64,000 nt of DNA from an uncultured Bacteroidales bacterium (GCA_964421595.1 CAYQXY010000001.1:70524-134523), one strand, 5' to 3'. Positions 6,993-62,488 are shown, numbered from the stretch's first letter. Notes: generated by a model from the letters alone, not told the origin. Translations and numbers: made by a program.

Positions 6993-7120
6993 CCGAATTT
7001 TTTAGAAGTTATTAACCTGGTTTTAAGCCATATTCACCAACAAAAGTGGTTACCACACATGGATCAACATTGGTCTTATGTCACTTGCTGTGGCCCTGGT
7101 TCATGGGTGATTAATCCGAA
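6993..7120 (-). repeat. Partial copy (a) of the GATC-hairpin/ATTCGG upstream cassette, plus an inverted second core
   Basis: In gene sense the region reads ...TGTTGATCCATGTGTGGTAACCAC...AAAAAATTCGG-ATG (MBOAT start). A second core, TTCATGGGTGATTAATCCGAAAG, lies at 7100-7120 in the opposite orientation. Confidence 0.5.
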
Positions 7121-8788: not shown

Positions 8789-10522
8789 TTAGTCTCCGCG
8801 TTTAATCCTTAATCTCTGGCCTGGATAAATACGGTTAGCATTACTTAATTCATTAAGTCTTAATATGTCACGATCGGTTACCCCCGGAAACTGTCGGGCA
8901 ATTTCCCAAAGAGTGTCACCCTGACGTACAGTGTAATACAAGAATTCCCCCGACCCGTCCGGGGTCAAAGCTGTTGAAGGTTGATTTGTTGCAGGAGTCC
9001 TTCCTACTCTTGCCTGCTTCTGAGCAAAACTGAGGCTGTTAACTGCATTAAAATAATCTGTCTGGCTGGAAGGAACATGGATCACAAGCCTCTGACCTGG
9101 TCGTATAATGTTCCCCCTGATATTGTTCCAGCTTCGAAGGTTAGCTACACTTACATTATACCATCTTGAGATAACGCCCAGATTATCACCCGATTTAACT
9201 GTATAATGAACCGGTGACCGGCCGGAAGGAACCGAAGCCGCGGCAGTACTGCTTAATGGCCCGGCGGTCAGGTTTGCACGATTCAGGTAAAGATCTGCCC
9301 TGTGAGCAGAGATGCTGTCAATATTGTCAATGAAGCGTGATGAATAATCTACAGGAAGCCTGAGAGAATAGGAACGGTCACGTGCAGGAATAATATCGCT
9401 CAGGTATTGCGGATTCATATCTCTAAGCATTTCTACAGGAATATCAAGTACTTCAGAGATCTGCATCAAATGCATCTCCTGATGGATCATTATTGTGTCG
9501 GTATAAACAGGAAAATCAACTGCAATTGGCACCAGTTTATGTTCGTCATAATAGTGCATCGCATAGGTGGCTGCAACAAAAGCAGGCACATAGCCCCTTG
9601 TCTCCCTGGGCAAATAGTTATAAATAGCCCAGTAATTACGCGCTCCTCCTGCCCGTCTGATTGCCCTGTTAACATTTCCGGGCCCGCAATTGTAGGCAGC
9701 AAGTGCAAGAGTCCAGTCTTTATAAATACCATGCAGGTCCCTCAGGTATCTGGCGGCTGCATGGGATGATGCCAAAGGATCACGGCGCTCATCAACCAGT
9801 GAATTCATGTTCAGATTATACATTCTGGCAGTCCCAAACATAAACTGCCACATCCCGGTGGCCTTTGCCCTTGAAACAGCACGCGGATTCAGGGCTGATT
9901 CAATGACAGGCAAATACCTGAGCTCCAGGGGGAGTCCGTACTGATCGAGCACCTCTTCAAACATAGGGAAATAATAATCGGTAAGCCCCAGCATTACTTC
10001 CATCTGGCCTCTTCTGTTTTTGGTGTACACCCCGATATAGGCTTTAACTACATTATTATAAGACAGATCAATTACAGAAGGAATATTGCTTAGCCTTTTT
10101 ATGTATACTGAGTCATGAAACTCCGGGATAGGAAATAGTGAAGTATCACGCTCTGTGAGGTGACTGGCTATTCTGGGAGACTGCCGTATATACCAAAGCT
10201 GAAGCAGGCTGTCAAGGTTAGTTTCAAAATGTAATTCAACCTCATCATCAATATCAGTAACACCAACATCCCTGGTAGAAGCCGGTTGATATACCGGTCT
10301 GTCAGGATCATGATCAGGCAGAGCATTGGCTTCTTCCGGAACAACAGCCAGTCCCTGTTCAGGGTCGGAAGTTTCAAACGCGCTGTCCAGCACCGCGACA
10401 ATAGCTTCATATGACTCGTCTGTGGCGGCTACAGGGCTTGTTTCATTTTCATTTATTCTTGACTGTGAAGAACACCCTAACAAGAATAGCAGACTGATAT
10501 TTAATACGATAAGGTTTTTCAT
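8789..10522 (-). CDS. MltD-like lytic murein transglycosylase lipoprotein (SLT domain plus two LysM domains)
   Basis: 577 aa with lipobox LLGC. SLT motifs are GMWQFMFGTARMY and AAYNCGPGNVNRAIR. There are two C-terminal LysM units (YTVKSGDNLGVISRWY... and YTVRQGDTLWEIARQF...). Confidence 0.85.
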   Translation of the reverse strand: MKNLIVLNISLLFLLGCSSQSRINENETSPVAATDESYEAIVAVLDSAFETSDPEQGLAVVPEEANALPDHDPDRPVYQPASTRDVGVTDIDDEVELHFETNLDSLLQLWYIRQSPRIASHLTERDTSLFPIPEFHDSVYIKRLSNIPSVIDLSYNNVVKAYIGVYTKNRRGQMEVMLGLTDYYFPMFEEVLDQYGLPLELRYLPVIESALNPRAVSRAKATGMWQFMFGTARMYNLNMNSLVDERRDPLASSHAAARYLRDLHGIYKDWTLALAAYNCGPGNVNRAIRRAGGARNYWAIYNYLPRETRGYVPAFVAATYAMHYYDEHKLVPIAVDFPVYTDTIMIHQEMHLMQISEVLDIPVEMLRDMNPQYLSDIIPARDRSYSLRLPVDYSSRFIDNIDSISAHRADLYLNRANLTAGPLSSTAAASVPSGRSPVHYTVKSGDNLGVISRWYNVSVANLRSWNNIRGNIIRPGQRLVIHVPSSQTDYFNAVNSLSFAQKQARVGRTPATNQPSTALTPDGSGEFLYYTVRQGDTLWEIARQFPGVTDRDILRLNELSNANRIYPGQRLRIKRGD

Positions 10523-26363: not shown

Positions 26364-26656
26364 CCACACAACTTAAACCTGCACTGAATCTTAATACCAC
26401 CAGTTTAACATATATAATTCTACATTAGCACATTATCGCTGCAAGAATAATTTTAAACGGAAATTGAACATTTACTGAATAACACCGTTTAATATTTGAG
26501 TTGACGTAAACTACTGATTTAACTGAATCATCAGTTTTTCACTTTTCGTCTATCACACTTTAACTAATGGAATAACTAACATATAATCAACACAATAACA
26601 AAGTCTTATTTTGATGTATCTACCACGAACCAGGGCACTCAGAAAGAAATGAATAA

Positions 26657-26737
26657 GGCATGGGCGATCTATCCCTGGCAAACACGTTAAACGGACACAT
26701 ATCTTACTTTAATTAAAAATAATAACACTTTATTCCG
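26657..26737 (+). promoter_or_regulatory. Copy (e) of the GATC-hairpin/CACGT/TTACTT/ATTCCG upstream cassette, abutting the copper-chaperone ATG
   Basis: The sequence is GGCATGGGCGATCTATCCCTGGCAAACACGTTAAACGGACACATATCTTACTTTAATTAAAAATAATAACACTTTATTCCG-ATG. It aligns along its full length with the copies before actD and psd. Confidence 0.55.
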
Positions 26738-29035: not shown

Positions 29036-29540
29036 CTATTTCAACAGCGCCATTTTCTTTAAGTATTTCCTTAGCCTGTGACCATCCGTCTTCACTTATT
29101 CCTTCATCCTGTCCGAGCGATATAATAAATTTATCATCTGATGCACGTGCAAACTGCTCATCAGCATCCTTACCCGGATATAATCCTGTTCGGACCTGAA
29201 ATACAGCCACTGTACCTGCGAAAGTCAGCAAAATGGTAAGAAGATAAATGACCACTACAAATGAGGGGAACGAAAAGACTGGTTTCCCTCCGTAAAGAAT
29301 TGGGTAATCAATAACAGCTGTATAATACAGAAACAAAAACACAAGAACAACGGCACTTGCTCCGGCAAAAACTGAGAAGTATGGCAGTCGGCTCTCCCTG
29401 CCCAGAAGTTTTAATACATCATGCACGGGGAAAGGCGTCCACGCATCCCTGATGGGAATGTTTTTTTCCTTTAGTTTTCCAATAGCACTGACCAGATCTC
29501 GGTCATTGTTAAACACTGCCAGCATATTAGTTTGATTCAT
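29025..29540 (-). CDS. actD: Alternative complex III subunit ActD (DUF3341-type membrane protein)
   Basis: 171 aa. It has an N-terminal soluble segment (AVFNNDRDLVSAIGKLKEKNI) plus two TM helices, and lies between actC and actE. Confidence 0.75.
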   Translation of the reverse strand: MNQTNMLAVFNNDRDLVSAIGKLKEKNIPIRDAWTPFPVHDVLKLLGRESRLPYFSVFAGASAVVLVFLFLYYTAVIDYPILYGGKPVFSFPSFVVVIYLLTILLTFAGTVAVFQVRTGLYPGKDADEQFARASDDKFIISLGQDEGISEDGWSQAKEILKENGAVEIVER

Positions 29541-29625
29541 CCGAATATAGTGTTGTTATCATGTTTAATATAAGTAAAACAATATCCATGTCACGTGGTT
29601 GCCACGGATCGATCACCCATGGATT
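29541..29625 (-). promoter_or_regulatory. Copy (b) of the upstream cassette, inside the 125-nt actC-actD spacer
   Basis: In gene sense it reads TCCATGGGTGATCGATCCGTGGCAACCACGTGACATGGATATTGTTTTACTTATATTAAACATGATAACAACACTATATTCGG-ATG. Confidence 0.55.
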
Positions 29626-29665
29626 ATTAGCCTCTTTTTGTATGCCCCGGTTCGTGAGTGATTCA

Positions 29666-31036
29666 TCATATATCAGATTTTTCATCATCCGGTTTATGCC
29701 CGGTAAGTCCCTTAACTTCAGAGATGGCTATCATTGGAATAAAGCGTATAAATAAAAGCATGCCAGCCGAAAATATACCAAAAGTACCTACATAAACCCC
29801 AATATCAACGATTGTCGGAGAAAAACTAACCCAGCTTGAAGGCAGGTAATCCTGGGCAAGCGATGATATAAGGATAATATATCTCTCGAACCACATCCCT
29901 ATATTGATAATTATTGAAATTGCAAGCATCCAGTTAAGGCTGGTCCTTATTCTCCGGAACCAGAAAAGTTGCGGTATCACTGCATTACATACAACCATTA
30001 TCCAGAAACCAGACGAGAAATTTCCTGTCGCCCTTGACTTGAAAAAAGTAAAGATCTCATAGGTGCTTCCGGAGTACCAGGCAATAAAAATTTCAGTCAG
30101 GTAAGCCAGTCCGATAACCATACTTCCAAATATCAATACCCTGGTAATCGAATTAAGATGCCTGTCAGTAATAAAGTCAGTCAGCGAAAAAGTTTTTCTT
30201 ATAAGGATCATAATTGTCAGAACCATCGCAAATCCGGAAAATATTGCACCAACGAAAAAGTAAGGAGGCAGGATAGTTGTATGCCAGCCCGGGATAACAG
30301 AAACAGCGAAATCAAGAGCTACGATTGTATGAACCGATACTACCAGCGGAGCTGCCAGTCCGCCAAGCACCTTCGATAACGCCTCATAACGAACCCAGTT
30401 CTGCACTGAACCTACCCAGCCCATACTGAAAAACCCGTAAATTCCTTTTTTAACTTTTGAAGTCGCCCTGTCTCTCAGAGTGGCAAGATCGGGAATCATC
30501 CCAAAATACCAGAGAGTAAGTGAAAGCAGAAGATATGTCGAAATTGCAAGCACGTCCCAGAAAAGCGGTGAATTGTAGTTTACCCATAGCGGACCTCGTG
30601 TATTGGGATAAGGCATAATAAAGAATATTAACCAGATACGTCCAAGGTGCAACGCCGGGAACAGCCCTGCGCACATTACGGCAAACACTGTCATAGCCTC
30701 TGCTGTCCTGTTTATGGCCGCAGTCCATTTAGCCCTGAAAACAATCAGGAATATAGTGAAGGCAGTACCGGCATGGCCTATACCTATCCACCACACAAAA
30801 TTTATAATATCCCATCCCCATCCTATGGAATTATTCAACCCCCATGTACCCAGGCCTTCTGTTACCGTTACATACATTGCCCATAGTCCGAATAATAATG
30901 CCAGGGTGGCAATGGTCATTGCAATATACCACCAGGTGGCAGGGCTTCTGTCTGTAGGGCCGGCTATATCACTTGTCACCCGGGAAAAGGATTTGTTTCC
31001 CGTTACAAGGGTGGGTCGGACTGCAGTGTTATACAT
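29666..31036 (-). CDS. actC: Alternative complex III subunit ActC (NrfD/PsrC-like quinol-interacting membrane subunit)
   Basis: 456 aa and polytopic (about 10 TM helices), immediately after actB. Confidence 0.8.
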   Translation of the reverse strand: MYNTAVRPTLVTGNKSFSRVTSDIAGPTDRSPATWWYIAMTIATLALLFGLWAMYVTVTEGLGTWGLNNSIGWGWDIINFVWWIGIGHAGTAFTIFLIVFRAKWTAAINRTAEAMTVFAVMCAGLFPALHLGRIWLIFFIMPYPNTRGPLWVNYNSPLFWDVLAISTYLLLSLTLWYFGMIPDLATLRDRATSKVKKGIYGFFSMGWVGSVQNWVRYEALSKVLGGLAAPLVVSVHTIVALDFAVSVIPGWHTTILPPYFFVGAIFSGFAMVLTIMILIRKTFSLTDFITDRHLNSITRVLIFGSMVIGLAYLTEIFIAWYSGSTYEIFTFFKSRATGNFSSGFWIMVVCNAVIPQLFWFRRIRTSLNWMLAISIIINIGMWFERYIILISSLAQDYLPSSWVSFSPTIVDIGVYVGTFGIFSAGMLLFIRFIPMIAISEVKGLTGHKPDDEKSDI

Positions 31037-39867: not shown

Positions 39868-40159
39868 CCGAATATTTTTAATAGTGAAATTATTCTCTGA
39901 AATCTGCTTAAATCATTTCTGATGGCGGGAACTATGAAATCTACAATTTGCCGGTAACATTTATTATTTTCTGTTATCTTTTTAAATGGCAGATGATCAA
40001 AAAGTTCATTTATCCATCAGGTCAACGAATTTACGCTCGTAATCCCGGCTGAAAATTATACTTAATCAGGGACAATCAGATTTCTTCACAAAAATAGCAA
40101 TTACAAGGCAAAAAAAAAGCTCCCTTAACAGGGAGCCATTTAAAATTCATAAAGTATGC

Positions 40160-41373: not shown

Positions 41374-41457
41374 CCGAATAATTTATAAGTTCTAATCAAA
41401 ATATAAGTAAATTAAAATTGCTAATCACGTGTTCGTCACAGATGGATCACCCGTGGA
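41374..41457 (-). promoter_or_regulatory. Copy (c) of the upstream cassette, filling the whole cdsA-psd spacer
   Basis: In gene sense it reads GATCCACGGGTGATCCATCTGTGACGAACACGTGATTAGCAATTTTAATTTACTTATATTTTGATTAGAACTTATAAATTATTCGG-ATG. Confidence 0.55.
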
Positions 41458-42276
41458 TCATACAATCATACACAGGTAAACCCAAACAATTGGAATAACA
41501 AAAAGCCATGCATCGACACGATCAAGAACACCACCGTGTCCGGGAAGGAGTTTTCCTGAATCCTTAACGCCAAGCCCCCTCTTATACAAGGATTCCAAAA
41601 GATCACCGTAAATTCCAAAAACCGCAATTATAGCGGCAATAACCATCCAGCTGGAATGTCCGGGCAGAGGGAATATGCTCTTAATTAAAAAGGAAGCTGC
41701 CAATACTGTCAGACCACCTCCAATTGTTCCTTCCCAGGTCTTTTTTGGCGACACACTTTCAAAAAGCCGGTGACGGCCAAAAGGCACACCAACGAGATAG
41801 GCTGCGGTATCATTTACCATTATAAGAATAAATATTCCTGCAAGGATATTGGGATTGTATTGATCACCTGACTCCCCTCCCGAAAATATTATCATATTCA
41901 GCAGACTGAAAGGCACCGCTATATAGATAATTCCAAAAAACGTCCATACAAGGTTGTTGAAGGGGTTATCCTTTTTTCTGTAAAGTTCGGCAATCATAGC
42001 AACAGGAGGGAAAACAAACAAAACAGACAGGAACCTCAATTCCGAATAACCTGATGAATAACCGAACATAAAAAGGAAAAAGACAACAGATGCCAGCAGG
42101 CCTGTGAATTTCTGGACATGCACCCCCTTTGTTTCAGCAAGCTTATAAAATTCAAGTAGAGTAAGAATCAGCAAGACCAGGTAAAAGATCAGGAATGCTA
42201 TGCTTCCGGCAAATATTGTTCCGAATACCAGCGCCCCGAATAATGCACCGGTTATAGCACGTTGAAGCAGGTTCAT
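41458..42276 (-). CDS. cdsA: Phosphatidate cytidylyltransferase
   Basis: 272 aa with the signature SLYKRGLGVKDSGKLLPGHGGVLDRVD. Confidence 0.9.
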   Translation of the reverse strand: MNLLQRAITGALFGALVFGTIFAGSIAFLIFYLVLLILTLLEFYKLAETKGVHVQKFTGLLASVVFFLFMFGYSSGYSELRFLSVLFVFPPVAMIAELYRKKDNPFNNLVWTFFGIIYIAVPFSLLNMIIFSGGESGDQYNPNILAGIFILIMVNDTAAYLVGVPFGRHRLFESVSPKKTWEGTIGGGLTVLAASFLIKSIFPLPGHSSWMVIAAIIAVFGIYGDLLESLYKRGLGVKDSGKLLPGHGGVLDRVDAWLFVIPIVWVYLCMIV

Positions 42277-45193: not shown

Positions 45194-45353
45194 TCAATAA
45201 TTTTAACTGCAAATGTAATCAAATTTTAAAACATACTGCCCATACAGCACCATGCAGTCAGGCAGTAATATCTAATAAAATGAATTAGTATATTTGTTCC
45301 TAAAACGTACTTTTAACAACCATATTGCCAAACTGTTCATCAACTATAAACAA

Positions 45354-49920: not shown

Positions 49921-50033
49921 CAAATGTAAATGAATTTCCCATCAACTGAAAATCAATCAGAGATCAGGATATTGCATGGGTAATCGACCTTCAGGTCAAA
50001 TATTTTTATCCGAAATCACACGAAAACGGATAA
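49921..50033 (+). repeat. Copy 1 of a ~100-nt paralogous intergenic unit (17-codon ORF plus hairpins); also carries the coaD -7 box on the other strand
   Basis: It is nearly identical to 61396-61508. The ATG at 49930 opens MNFPSTENQSEIRILHG*. It has a GACCTTCAGGTC palindrome and the hairpin TTATCCG(N14)CGGATAA at 50006-50033. The reverse complement of 49921-49928 is TACATTTG. Confidence 0.6.
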
Positions 50034-50071
50034 AGAAACTTTATTGTAAAGCAAAGCGGTTCCTCCTGTAA

Positions 50072-50117
50072 GGCAAAATTTTGTATTTTTCAGACAAAAT
50101 TTTGCCTTCTTGTTTTT
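50072..50117 (+). terminator. Plus-strand intrinsic terminator with no annotated plus-strand gene upstream
   Basis: An 11-bp stem, GGCAAAATTTT / AAAATTTTGCC, is followed by TTCTTGTTTTTT on the plus strand. Confidence 0.5.
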
Positions 50118-50146
50118 TACAGGAGAAACATATACAAAAGCTGTTT

Positions 50147-53268: not shown

Positions 53269-53450
53269 AATGTGATATACTATGACATGGAGGCAAGACA
53301 ATATGTCATCTCACAAACGCTCCGGAACAATTTACCCATGCATGGCAAGTCTTGTGCCAATTAGACTGAAGTGTATATTTATTAACAATTTTATTTAATT
53401 TAAGTTCGTATGGTGCTGAAGCTTATACTTAACCGGCTTTCGCATAATAT

Positions 53451-53502: not shown

Positions 53503-53766
53503 TTATTTCTTCTTGTCCATATGCTTTTTATACCTGTTCATGAATTTGTCGACACGGCCTGCAGTATCAACAAGCTTCATCTTGCCTGTATAAAATGGAT
53601 GTGACGTATTGGAGATTTCAAGTTTATAAAGAGGGTACTCCTTACCATCTTCCAGCGTAATGGTTTCTTTAGTGGCAGCAGTAGAACGTGAAATAAAATA
53701 ATTTTCGTTCGACATATCTTTAAATACCACAAGACGGTAATTCTCCGGATGAATGTCTTTTTTCAT
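53503..53766 (-). CDS. rpmE2: 50S ribosomal protein L31, type B
   Basis: 87 aa from the internal ATG: [17 protein letters not shown]...HPFYTGK. There is no CxxC zinc motif. The 169-aa ORF in the track is an artefactual 5' extension. Confidence 0.85.
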
Positions 53767-54092
53767 ATCAAATATTTTTCTCGGACTATATTTCTTTAAC
53801 TTACAATTTAGTAATCGGATTGCAAAGATAACTCTTGTAATGAAATATGCAAAACATTTTAAGTCATAAGTATAATATTTTATATTATAACTTTTTATTA
53901 TGCTGTGAAACAGGCGAAAAACAAAATACCTCTGGTTGAAATTCACCTCCTCCCCGGGTGATTTAACCGGACAAATTGGTGCTATTATATTTACTGACAG
54001 AAAGTAACACATCCATATGACATGGTCGCCGGTGATGAATTACCCATGCCTTGTTCATTTCTGCTTTTTTATATACATGGTTCGGGGGAGAC

Positions 54093-61395: not shown

Positions 61396-61508
61396 CAAAT
61401 GTACATGAATTTCCCATCAACTGAAAATTCAACAGGGATAAAGACATTGCATGGGTAATCGACCTTCAGGTCAAATTTTTTTATCTGAAATTACACACAG
61501 ACAGATAA
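61396..61508 (+). repeat. Copy 2 of the paralogous intergenic unit; also carries the oxidoreductase -7 box on the other strand
   Basis: The ATG at 61405 opens MNFPSTENSTGIKTLHG*. It has the same GACCTTCAGGTC palindrome. The hairpin TTATCTG(N14)CAGATAA at 61481-61508 has a compensatory change relative to copy 1. The reverse complement of 61396-61403 is TACATTTG. Confidence 0.6.
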
Positions 61509-61541
61509 AAAAACAGGAGAATATCATCAAATTTCGCTAAT

Positions 61542-61586
61542 AAAAAAAAGCCGGGATCCCATTTAGAGATCCAGGCCTGTTTTTTG
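61542..61586. terminator. Bidirectional intrinsic terminator downstream of rpoD
   Basis: The sequence is AAAAAAAA-GCCGGGATC-ccatttaga-GATCCAGGC-CTGTTTTTT, with one mismatch in the stem. Confidence 0.6.
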
Positions 61587-61627: not shown

Positions 61628-62488
61628 TTAACCGAGGTACATCCTTAAGAGTTTGTTCTTTGATTTATGCCGGAGCCTTTTCAAAGCTTTTTCCTTGATC
61701 TGCCTTGTACGTTCCTTGGTAAGACCCAGTTCTTCACCGATAGCCTCAAGCGACATTTCCTGCCGGCCAAGTCCGAAATAACATTCAAGCACATTTCGCT
61801 CTTTGTCAGTCAGTATACTCAGGGTACGGGTTATTTCTTTTCTCAGCGAGTCAACCATCAACTGTGAGTCGGCTATGGGAGAATCCTTGTTCTCCATTAC
61901 ATCAAGCAATGAATTGTCCTCCCCGTCAACAAACGGAGCATCGAAGGACATTGGACGGCCATTAAGCTTTAAGGTGCCGTCAACCTTCTCCTTGGTCATT
62001 TCAAGTTTCTCTGCAAGCTCCTCGGCTGAAGGATCCCTTTCATTTTCCTGCTCAAACCTGGAACTGATCTTATGTATCTTGCCCAATGAACCTACCTGGT
62101 TGAGAGGAAGTCTAACAACTCTTGCCTGTTCGGAGATCGCCTGTAAAATTGATTGTCTTATCCACCAGACAGCATAGGAAATAAATTTAAATCCCTTGGT
62201 CTCATCAAATTTAGTAGCTGCCTTTATCAGACCCAGGTTACCCTCATTAATCAGATCAGGCAGACTGAGCCCCTGGAACTGATACTGTTTGGCAACAGAT
62301 ACAACAAATCGTAAATTAGCCTTTACCATTTTCTCAAGTGCTGCCTGATCGCCGTTTCTAATCCGCTGGGCCAGTTCGACCTCCATTTCAGGGGAAATCA
62401 GATCTTCTTTACCTATCTCCTGAAGATACTTTTCAATAGAATTTGAATCACGGTTGGTGATCGATTTTGTTATTTTTAACTGCCTCAT
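61628..62488 (-). CDS. rpoD: Primary RNA polymerase sigma factor (short Bacteroidota SigA/RpoD)
   Basis: 286 aa. Region 2 is [11 protein letters not shown]...[18 protein letters not shown]...[13 protein letters not shown]. Region 4 is [20 protein letters not shown]. Confidence 0.9.

Follow-up and report, generated by a model that had tools for sequence, protein, structure and literature searches.

The window analyzed here, a 64,000-nt stretch of DNA from an uncultured Bacteroidales bacterium (GCA_964421595.1 CAYQXY010000001.1:70524-134523), contains an ACIII operon in which actC, encoding a member of the NrfD family (29666-31036, minus strand; TGA stop at 29668-29666), is followed by actD (PF11821; 29025-29540, minus strand, start at 29540). 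The two genes are separated by a gap of 125 nt (29541-29665), the letters of which are identical to those quoted in the original prediction, and the remaining act junctions overlap or are shorter than 30 nt, as had also been noted. The gap is occupied by a 126-nt copy of a repeat that spans it from one gene to the other: the first A of its 5' ATGAATCAC doubles as the last base of the actC TGA stop, and its 3' TATTCGG touches the actD ATG.

The regions upstream of psd (41374-41457) and of a gene encoding an HMA-domain protein (26657-26737) are homologous to the actC–actD spacer over its whole length, as was claimed when the repeat was first described. A profile built from these three copies detects three more in the window (nhmmer), on the rpmE2 side (54103-53967, E 3.3e-13), upstream of cdsA (42417-42321, E 2e-9), and upstream of an MBOAT gene (7125-6990, E 4.8e-8), and on this basis the proposed new repeat family is real. 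A seventh copy, degenerate, is found immediately beyond the left edge of the window, which brings the main family to seven copies in approximately 80 kb of this genome, five of them minus-strand and two plus-strand:

29541-29666, minus strand: 126-nt insertion between actC and actD
26614-26737, plus strand: copy at the HMA-domain gene, flush with its ATG
41374-41469, minus strand: copy at psd, flush with the ATG and 5'-truncated, its 5' part overlapping the final cdsA codons
42323-42432, minus strand: copy at cdsA, 46 nt upstream of the ATG, with an internal deletion and a target that is not a start codon
53967-54096, minus strand: copy between a class-V aminotransferase gene and rpmE2 (hereafter c54; nhmmer and Pfam)
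6993-7115, minus strand: copy at the MBOAT gene, flush with the ATG
L059:7227-7338: seventh copy, degenerate, just left of the window

The homology reported earlier stands, but the unit had been drawn too short. Similarity between the HMA copy and the spacer runs approximately 45 nt further 5' than was first described, through CACGAACCrGGGCA to (G)ATGAATC, where it overlaps the actC stop, and the true unit is 110–130 nt. Units begin at or across the upstream stop codon; in c54, the 5' ATGA supplies or overlaps the stop codon of the aminotransferase gene, and the 3' end lies approximately 200 nt ahead of the real rpmE2 start (about 53766). The mechanical open reading frame at this gene (53503-54012, minus strand) encodes 169 aa with an L31 domain from residue 83, and relatives call a protein of 87 aa, which together place the true rpmE2 start at ~53766. 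The family consensus was built by hand, and approximately 10 independent sites were sampled.

Several further occurrences had been proposed. Of the three copies described as shortened or degenerate, the one at cdsA is supported by its profile match and the one at MBOAT is a true copy of full length, whereas the one at ctaD is not supported. The regions upstream of ctaD, lon, fprA, and actA give consensus scores within the range of shuffled sequences; ATTCGG-ATG does precede fprA, but no element is detectable there. Among the additional core matches that had been listed, the rpmE2-side copy is confirmed by the profile, the units at 49.9 and 61.4 kb belong to a related subfamily (see below), and the one at lon is not supported. 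Upstream of lon, GCATGGGTAAAT (53328-53348) matches part of the core in surroundings that show no similarity; it arose by chance or is a relic no longer recognizable. The short motifs by which the family was originally described are not enriched by themselves: CATGGGYGATC with up to two mismatches occurs 25 times versus 26.4 expected, and ATTCGGATG with up to one mismatch occurs 19 times versus 18.5.

Filled and Empty Sites in Related Lineages

Four related lineages were found via homologues of ActD and FtsH and are named here by the identity of their FtsH to that of the window: a strain approximately 4.5% diverged (L001, L061), the 98% lineage (ENA ZHEN22), the 96% lineage, and a 95% sister species that is syntenic with the window over more than 40 kb, their relationships being drawn from these two proteins. 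At actC/actD, the sister species is fully syntenic (ActD 89% identical) and has an empty allele (ATATATGATGAACCAAAC, or ...ATCTGATATATGATGAACCAAACTAAT...) in which stop and start overlap as TGATG, and the window carries exactly 126 nt extra at the identical point. Strain L001 and lineage L058 (ActD 88% identical) carry the copy as well. In Bacteroidales with 65–67% ActD identity, actC and actD mostly overlap or abut, and none carries the element. From these comparisons, we read the actC–actD gap as a copy of a small lineage-specific mobile repeat and not as a conserved regulatory cassette. Selenocysteine insertion or read-through at the actC TGA was dropped as an explanation because the sister species has the same TGA in its overlapping junction. 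One Logan contig (SRR3310977) ends within the actC–actD copy (L057:1-100), which is the behavior expected at a repeat, and its ActD is called five residues short.

Filled and empty alleles were compared at the following sites, with a slash marking the insertion point:

actC/actD: empty in the 95% sister; filled in the window, L001, and L058 (126 nt)
HMA: empty in the 95% sister (L043; CATTAAA/ATGAAAAAATC); filled in the window
cdsA upstream: empty in the 95% sister; filled in the window and in the 98% and 96% lineages
rpmE2 side: empty in the 96% and 95% lineages; filled in the window and in the 98% lineage
MBOAT: empty in the 95% sister (L069; 130-nt spacer, CTGCCAG/ATGTACC); filled in the window
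coaD-like gene (subfamily 2, 204 nt): empty in the 98%, 96%, and 95% lineages; filled in the window
BPL–RsfS (subfamily 2): empty in the window (near 45225-45240) and in the 95% lineage; filled in the 98% lineage (L053:9375-9513, 139 nt) and, with a shorter copy, in the 96% lineage (L050, about 9420-9490)
DUF5777–Rieske: empty in the window (25-nt spacer); filled in the sister (about 190 nt)

The insertions are discrete, polymorphic, and sequence-specifically placed, and they have conserved ends. The psd copy is the oldest that we found; the 98% and 96% lineages have it too, and the 95% sister keeps a probable remnant that is fuller and diverged. The distribution at BPL–RsfS does not fit a simple tree and suggests precise excision, repeated (parallel) insertion, or recombination between lineages.

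Some copies in the relatives are rearranged. The insertion between the DUF5777 and Rieske genes of the sister species (L069:18100-18310) consists of a full unit and a partial one, both antisense. In the 96% lineage, two tandem units lie upstream of cdsA (L050:12366-12640), the upstream one near-consensus and the downstream one degenerate, and the second begins right after CGGATGAAT of the first. The central ~75 nt of c54 are inverted in the 98% lineage (L053:594-663 vs. window 53990-54060) between collinear flanks, and the edges of the inversion carry the short inverted repeats CAGAAA and TTTCTG.

Once inserted, the element decays roughly neutrally. The actD copy has diverged by 27.6% between the window and L058, compared with 33% at adjacent third codon positions. 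For the cdsA copy, divergence from the 98% and 96% lineages is 9.8% and 22% (third codon positions, 12.5% and 41%), and for the psd copy it is 33% and 36% (third codon positions, 19% and 44%). The changes are unevenly distributed, with 10% divergence in the last 13 nt before the ATG, 17% at the 5' end, 20% in the core, and 35–39% in the AT-rich parts; the core and the final 13 nt may change more slowly because of some constraint, gene conversion between copies, or alignment noise. The native rpmE2 leader beside c54 is only 4.9% diverged. Approximately 180 nt preceding the real rpmE2 start (53767-53950, minus strand) are 95% identical to the 98% lineage and 81–87% identical to the others, with TATCTTTG at -64, and this conserved stretch is probably a genuine L31 leader or promoter.

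Ends, Target, and Internal Core

The main-family unit begins with ATGAATCACCC and finishes with CTTTATTCGG. Every copy starts with an ATGAATC.CCC-like sequence independently of its target; at the HMA gene, for example, the 5' end of the copy is ATGTATCTACC and the gene itself starts ATGAAAAG. Immediately 3' of the element comes the native target sequence, beginning with ATGAA or ATGrAT in five of six sites, and the unit thus has, directly on its 3' side, a sequence similar to its own 5' end. In the 96% lineage, the well-preserved copy lies directly upstream of the ATGAAT of the degenerate copy, and c54 is followed by an ATCACCC relic, both of which are consistent with the 5' end of the element itself being a target.

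This resemblance complicates the reading of flanking repeats. The actC/actD copy is flanked by a perfect 9-bp direct repeat, GATGAATCA, whose 5' copy coincides with the 5' end that the family conserves at all sites, and the repeat may represent either element–target resemblance or a target-site duplication, both of which are compatible with the data. Evidence for duplication varies among sites, from the perfect 9 bp at actC/actD to only ATG.A at HMA and five of seven flank bases at the young subfamily-2 copy c49.

Exact placement at a start codon is seen in four of the seven main-family copies (actD, HMA, psd, and MBOAT). ATGAA is the commonest start context in the window (12 of 38 genes), and ATGAAT and GATGAA each occur approximately 70 times, mostly within genes. 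We attribute the flush placement to the resemblance between the 5' end ATGAATCACCC and the ATGAA target combined with selection among survivors. Copies are in the sense orientation to the downstream gene at seven of nine distinct sites, and the two antisense copies indicate that orientation along the gene is not obligatory. All four lineages conserve the native start region of fprA (39868-39900, minus strand; CACTAaTAA..TATTCGGATG), which is similar to the 3' end of the element; that 3' end may mimic or derive from a native leader such as this one.

Searches for terminal inverted repeats (TIRs) in three copies and in the consensus, also with shifted boundaries, found none; the only inverted-repeat matches link the internal core to either the 5' end or the 3' junction. 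Conservation is highest in GGGTGATCCATCCG, a block that equals, at 13 of 14 positions, the reverse complement of the hypothetical end-to-end junction CGG/ATGAATCACCC and that matches the 5' end at 12 of 13; GAATAAAG is complementary to CTTTATTC at all eight positions. Across copies, 76% and 66% of cells are paired in register, compared with 24–55% when the strands are slid by one to three columns. Within the main family, neither of these two long-range helices shows compensatory changes, and a single position co-varies between subfamilies (AATCACCC with GGGTGATC vs. AATTTCCC with GGGTAATC). Pairing that is in register and lacks compensatory change suggests that core–end complementarity is a feature needed for movement of the element and not maintained afterwards. 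An attC-like nested hairpin was rejected because the pairing of GAATAAAG with CTTTATTC crosses the core–junction pair.

The units at 49.9 and 61.4 kb are near-identical to each other and roughly collinear with the main family at approximately 50% identity, and on account of this collinearity we refer to them as subfamily 2:

49922-50125, plus strand: subfamily-2 copy (c49), a 204-nt insertion antisense to the flanking genes and upstream of a coaD-like gene
61397-61519, plus strand: subfamily-2 copy between an rpoD-like gene and a GFO/IDH/MocA gene, antisense to both

The 61.4-kb site has identical ends in all sampled lineages, with internal modules that differ. The 5' end of subfamily 2 is AAATGTA, preceded by C at all three sites seen. 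Read on the other strand, the empty alleles are TATGTTT/G, which is the coaD empty site in the 98%, 96%, and 95% lineages, and TATATTT/G; both are perfect -7 boxes interrupted just ahead of the G. Filled sites read TACATTT/G at the same distance from the gene, with TACATTTG rebuilt on the minus strand at 49928-49921 and 61403-61396, and the rebuilt box lies 47 nt from the ATG of the coaD-like gene, 57 nt from that of BPL, and 74 nt from that of the GFO/IDH/MocA gene. This rebuilding on the opposite strand explains why the units at 49.9 and 61.4 kb are antisense. Only here does the suggestion that the repeats carry promoters gain some support: the main family has no TAnnTTTG box, as had been stated at the outset, whereas subfamily 2 rebuilds a -7 box on the opposite strand.

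An extra module in the 49.9-kb unit (50040-50125) contains a long perfect hairpin (AAGGCAAAATTTTGT...ACAAAATTTTGCCTT) followed by runs of T on either strand, the appearance of a bidirectional terminator; the 98% lineage has this module in its subfamily-2 copies as well. Upstream of the 61.4-kb unit lies a gene for an rpoD-like primary sigma factor with regions 1.2, 2, 3, and 4 (61628-62488), which is followed by a clear intrinsic terminator on the minus strand (61520-61565), GCCTGGATC...GATCCCGGC and then T8.

RNA Structure, Coding Potential, and Alternative Explanations

Rfam searches of the whole window at the gathering threshold and of the actD–HMA locus at E values up to 10 returned no family for the repeat, the output consisting of a tRNA and chance C/D-box matches from an ATGATGA run. 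The repeat is not a known RNA family. Folds of single copies are no better than those of shuffled sequences (z-scores of -1.1 to +1.4), the RNAalifold consensus has essentially no structure (-0.57 kcal/mol), and no hairpins are predicted near either end of the element. A central hairpin had been described in which the stem sequences differ between copies and stay paired, and this description is not supported: the hairpin is paired in 69% of cells, compared with 69% in shuffles, and shows no covariation. Covariation, which the original prediction had proposed as a check, was found in none of three candidate helices.

The original prediction favored a shared cis-regulatory cassette that would co-regulate respiratory and envelope-lipid genes, in the form of a promoter with an operator or of a 5' leader RNA common to them. 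We consider this unlikely. Six of the seven copies in this genome do share the direction of the downstream gene, four end exactly at an ATG, divergence is lower in the core and the last 13 nt than elsewhere, and subfamily 2 puts a perfect TAnnTTTG box 48–81 nt upstream of two genes. However, the element is missing at orthologous sites in a syntenic sister that otherwise has the same genes, its overall divergence is near that of third codon positions, and the main family offers neither a TAnnTTTG box nor a consensus fold, covariation, or an Rfam family. The claim that all downstream genes have membrane, respiratory, or lipid functions fails for rpmE2 and also mirrors the gene content of the window. 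The empty sister sites and the antisense copies, outcomes that had been named in advance as evidence against it, contradict both an alternative-sigma promoter with an operator and a shared leader. A domesticated REP-like element had been offered as a third role; the repeat-element part of that suggestion is retained, and the domestication part is not supported.

A second alternative is an insert of the type described for mycobacterial MIRUs (see below), in which ribosomes would be passed across the insert by an internal ORF that is translationally linked to the preceding stop and shares 4 nt (ATGA) with the next start. The mycobacterial elements provide a precedent (PMC12548453), and parts of the sequence fit. 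The element's 5' ATG runs into the preceding stop codon at two sites, actC (TGATG) and the aminotransferase gene (ATGA). Of 10 copies flush with a start, counted over all lineages, nine finish with GATGAA and so produce an ATGA overlap, and one frame of the hand-built consensus is open throughout the unit and ends in that TGA. We nevertheless judge this reading to be very unlikely. The -4 frame of actual copies stays open over just 18–84 nt and usually lacks a start (51 nt and no start at actD), an open frame that could be started exists in only four of the 10 start-flush copies, and an internal ATG is present in only approximately five of 12 aligned copies. The short ORFs that do occur (MNHPRT...) are frame-shifted between copies. 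The whole-unit frame occurs in the consensus only, where it hinges on uncertain indels, and by a rough estimate its 43 open codons are not significant at this base composition.

That the repeats are nonmobile relics of a 5' untranslated region spread by local duplication or gene conversion, or a family of small RNA genes, is very unlikely: the fprA start region does resemble the 3' end of the element, but identical discrete boundaries recur at unlinked sites with clean empty alleles, and the main family has no promoter, terminator, or stable or conserved fold.

A Probable Family of Mobile Repeats and Its Relationship to Known Systems

Considering the distribution, ends, and target of the repeat together, we think it likely that the actC–actD spacer is a member of a family of approximately 110–130-nt noncoding, nonautonomous mobile repeats that is restricted to its lineage and hosted by an uncultured Bacteroidales genus. 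All sizeable ORFs of the window and of approximately 8–10 kb to either side were covered by Pfam or precomputed annotation, which revealed no transposase, integrase, or recombinase gene, and no longer, autonomous relative was found, so mobility is inferred from the presence/absence alleles only. Scans of 185,579 species genomes (one genome each) with four patterns gave only one chance match, and the absence of the core sequences from these genomes indicates that the family is private to this genus; pattern scans of metagenome and viral contigs gave chance matches only, which were weak by nhmmer, and blastn against PLSDB plasmids returned nothing relevant.

We propose that a sequence-specific trans-acting enzyme integrates the unit beside ATGAA. 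Candidates would be a site-specific recombinase acting at the short shared core or a single-strand transposase that uses the core–end complementarity, and the substrate would be an end-to-end joined or folded intermediate. Insertions within genes would be lethal, leaving as survivors those that are flush with start codons and mostly in the orientation of the gene. At TGATG, the first A of the insert would restore the upstream TGA and the downstream ATG would be untouched, and the ACIII operon would tolerate the insertion because the stop is re-created and the start preserved. The likely cost would be the loss of actC–actD translational coupling, with translation of actD then having to begin on the AT-rich third at the 3' end of the element. 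Subfamily 2 would follow the same logic, inserting at TAnnTTT/G with the element end restoring the -7 box.

We are more cautious about generalizing this scheme. A possible but doubtful extension is that a superfamily of TIR-less mini-elements homes to host expression signals by resemblance, with the core serving as a built-in guide or recognition partner for the putative enzyme. The ATGAATC 5' end would then direct insertion to ATGAA starts and the reverse complement of TACATTT to TAnnTTT/G boxes, each split signal being rebuilt. If true, signal-mimicking homing combined with a self-complementary core would constitute a mechanism distinct from those described for MITEs, REPs, and MIRUs.

In behavior, the closest analogue appears to be the mycobacterial interspersed repetitive unit, or MIRU (Supply et al. 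1997, as summarized in PMC12548453). MIRUs are apparently mobile, insert at start codons, and contain an internal ORF coupled at -4 nt (2025 review, PMC12548453). The likeness extends to short noncoding intergenic units within operons, insertion at start codons with ATGA-type overlap, a mostly genic orientation, the possibility of tandem copies, and little effect on flanking ORFs. It is a likeness of described behavior: the host phylum differs, the sequences are probably unrelated, and the internal coupled ORF, which defines the logic of MIRUs, does not appear to be maintained in this family. In addition, the Bacteroidales repeat has an inverted copy of its own junction and a subfamily that targets -7 boxes.

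Three other groups of elements share parts of this behavior. MITEs and palindromic repeats such as Correia/NEMIS, ERIC/IRU, and RUP are multi-copy, nonautonomous elements of approximately 100–200 nt that are co-transcribed, polymorphic among strains, and accompanied by modular deletion derivatives. The repeat is likewise small, noncoding, multi-copy, and polymorphic for presence or absence. However, it has no TIRs, so it is not a strict MITE, and it shows no consistent target-site duplication across sites and inserts at a specific sequence that mimics its own 5' end.

IS200/IS605-derived PATEs and REP/REPIN elements have neither TIRs nor duplications; they use a short specific target matching one end, leave seamless empty sites, and contain internal stretches that can pair with the cleavage or junction region. 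The repeat resembles them in inserting 5' of ATGAA, and its empty sites are exact. It differs in having no paired subterminal hairpins, only one weak central hairpin without covariation, and no Y1 gene was seen in the sampled DNA; its orientation follows genes and not one replication strand. An identity with REP/REPIN, which usually pairs a G+C-rich palindrome of 20–40 nt with a RAYT, was rejected, since the unit is ~126 nt and AT-rich, its 5–6-bp hairpin does no better than shuffles, and the sampled DNA contains no RAYT.

Integron cassettes and core-sharing integrative elements have a core direct repeat at both junctions, an inverted internal core, a fixed orientation, and arrays. The repeat shares the core direct repeat at its junctions, the inverted internal core, the fixed orientation, and arrays that grow by insertion beside a unit already in place, but it is a ~126-nt unit with no gene and no integrase or attI context.

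On this reading, the odd gap in the ACIII operon would be a tolerated insertion and not a regulatory device, which counsels caution against interpreting repeated motifs as regulons in MAGs. Such repeats break assemblies and shift start-codon calls. The family would be a second independent example, after MIRUs, of repeats that land on start codons and spare the genes, with unusually clean filled and empty alleles in four close lineages. To our knowledge, the movement mechanism of start-codon-landing elements has not been worked out, and the link between ends, target, and core, together with a subfamily that splits -7 boxes, may provide a concrete, testable clue to it.
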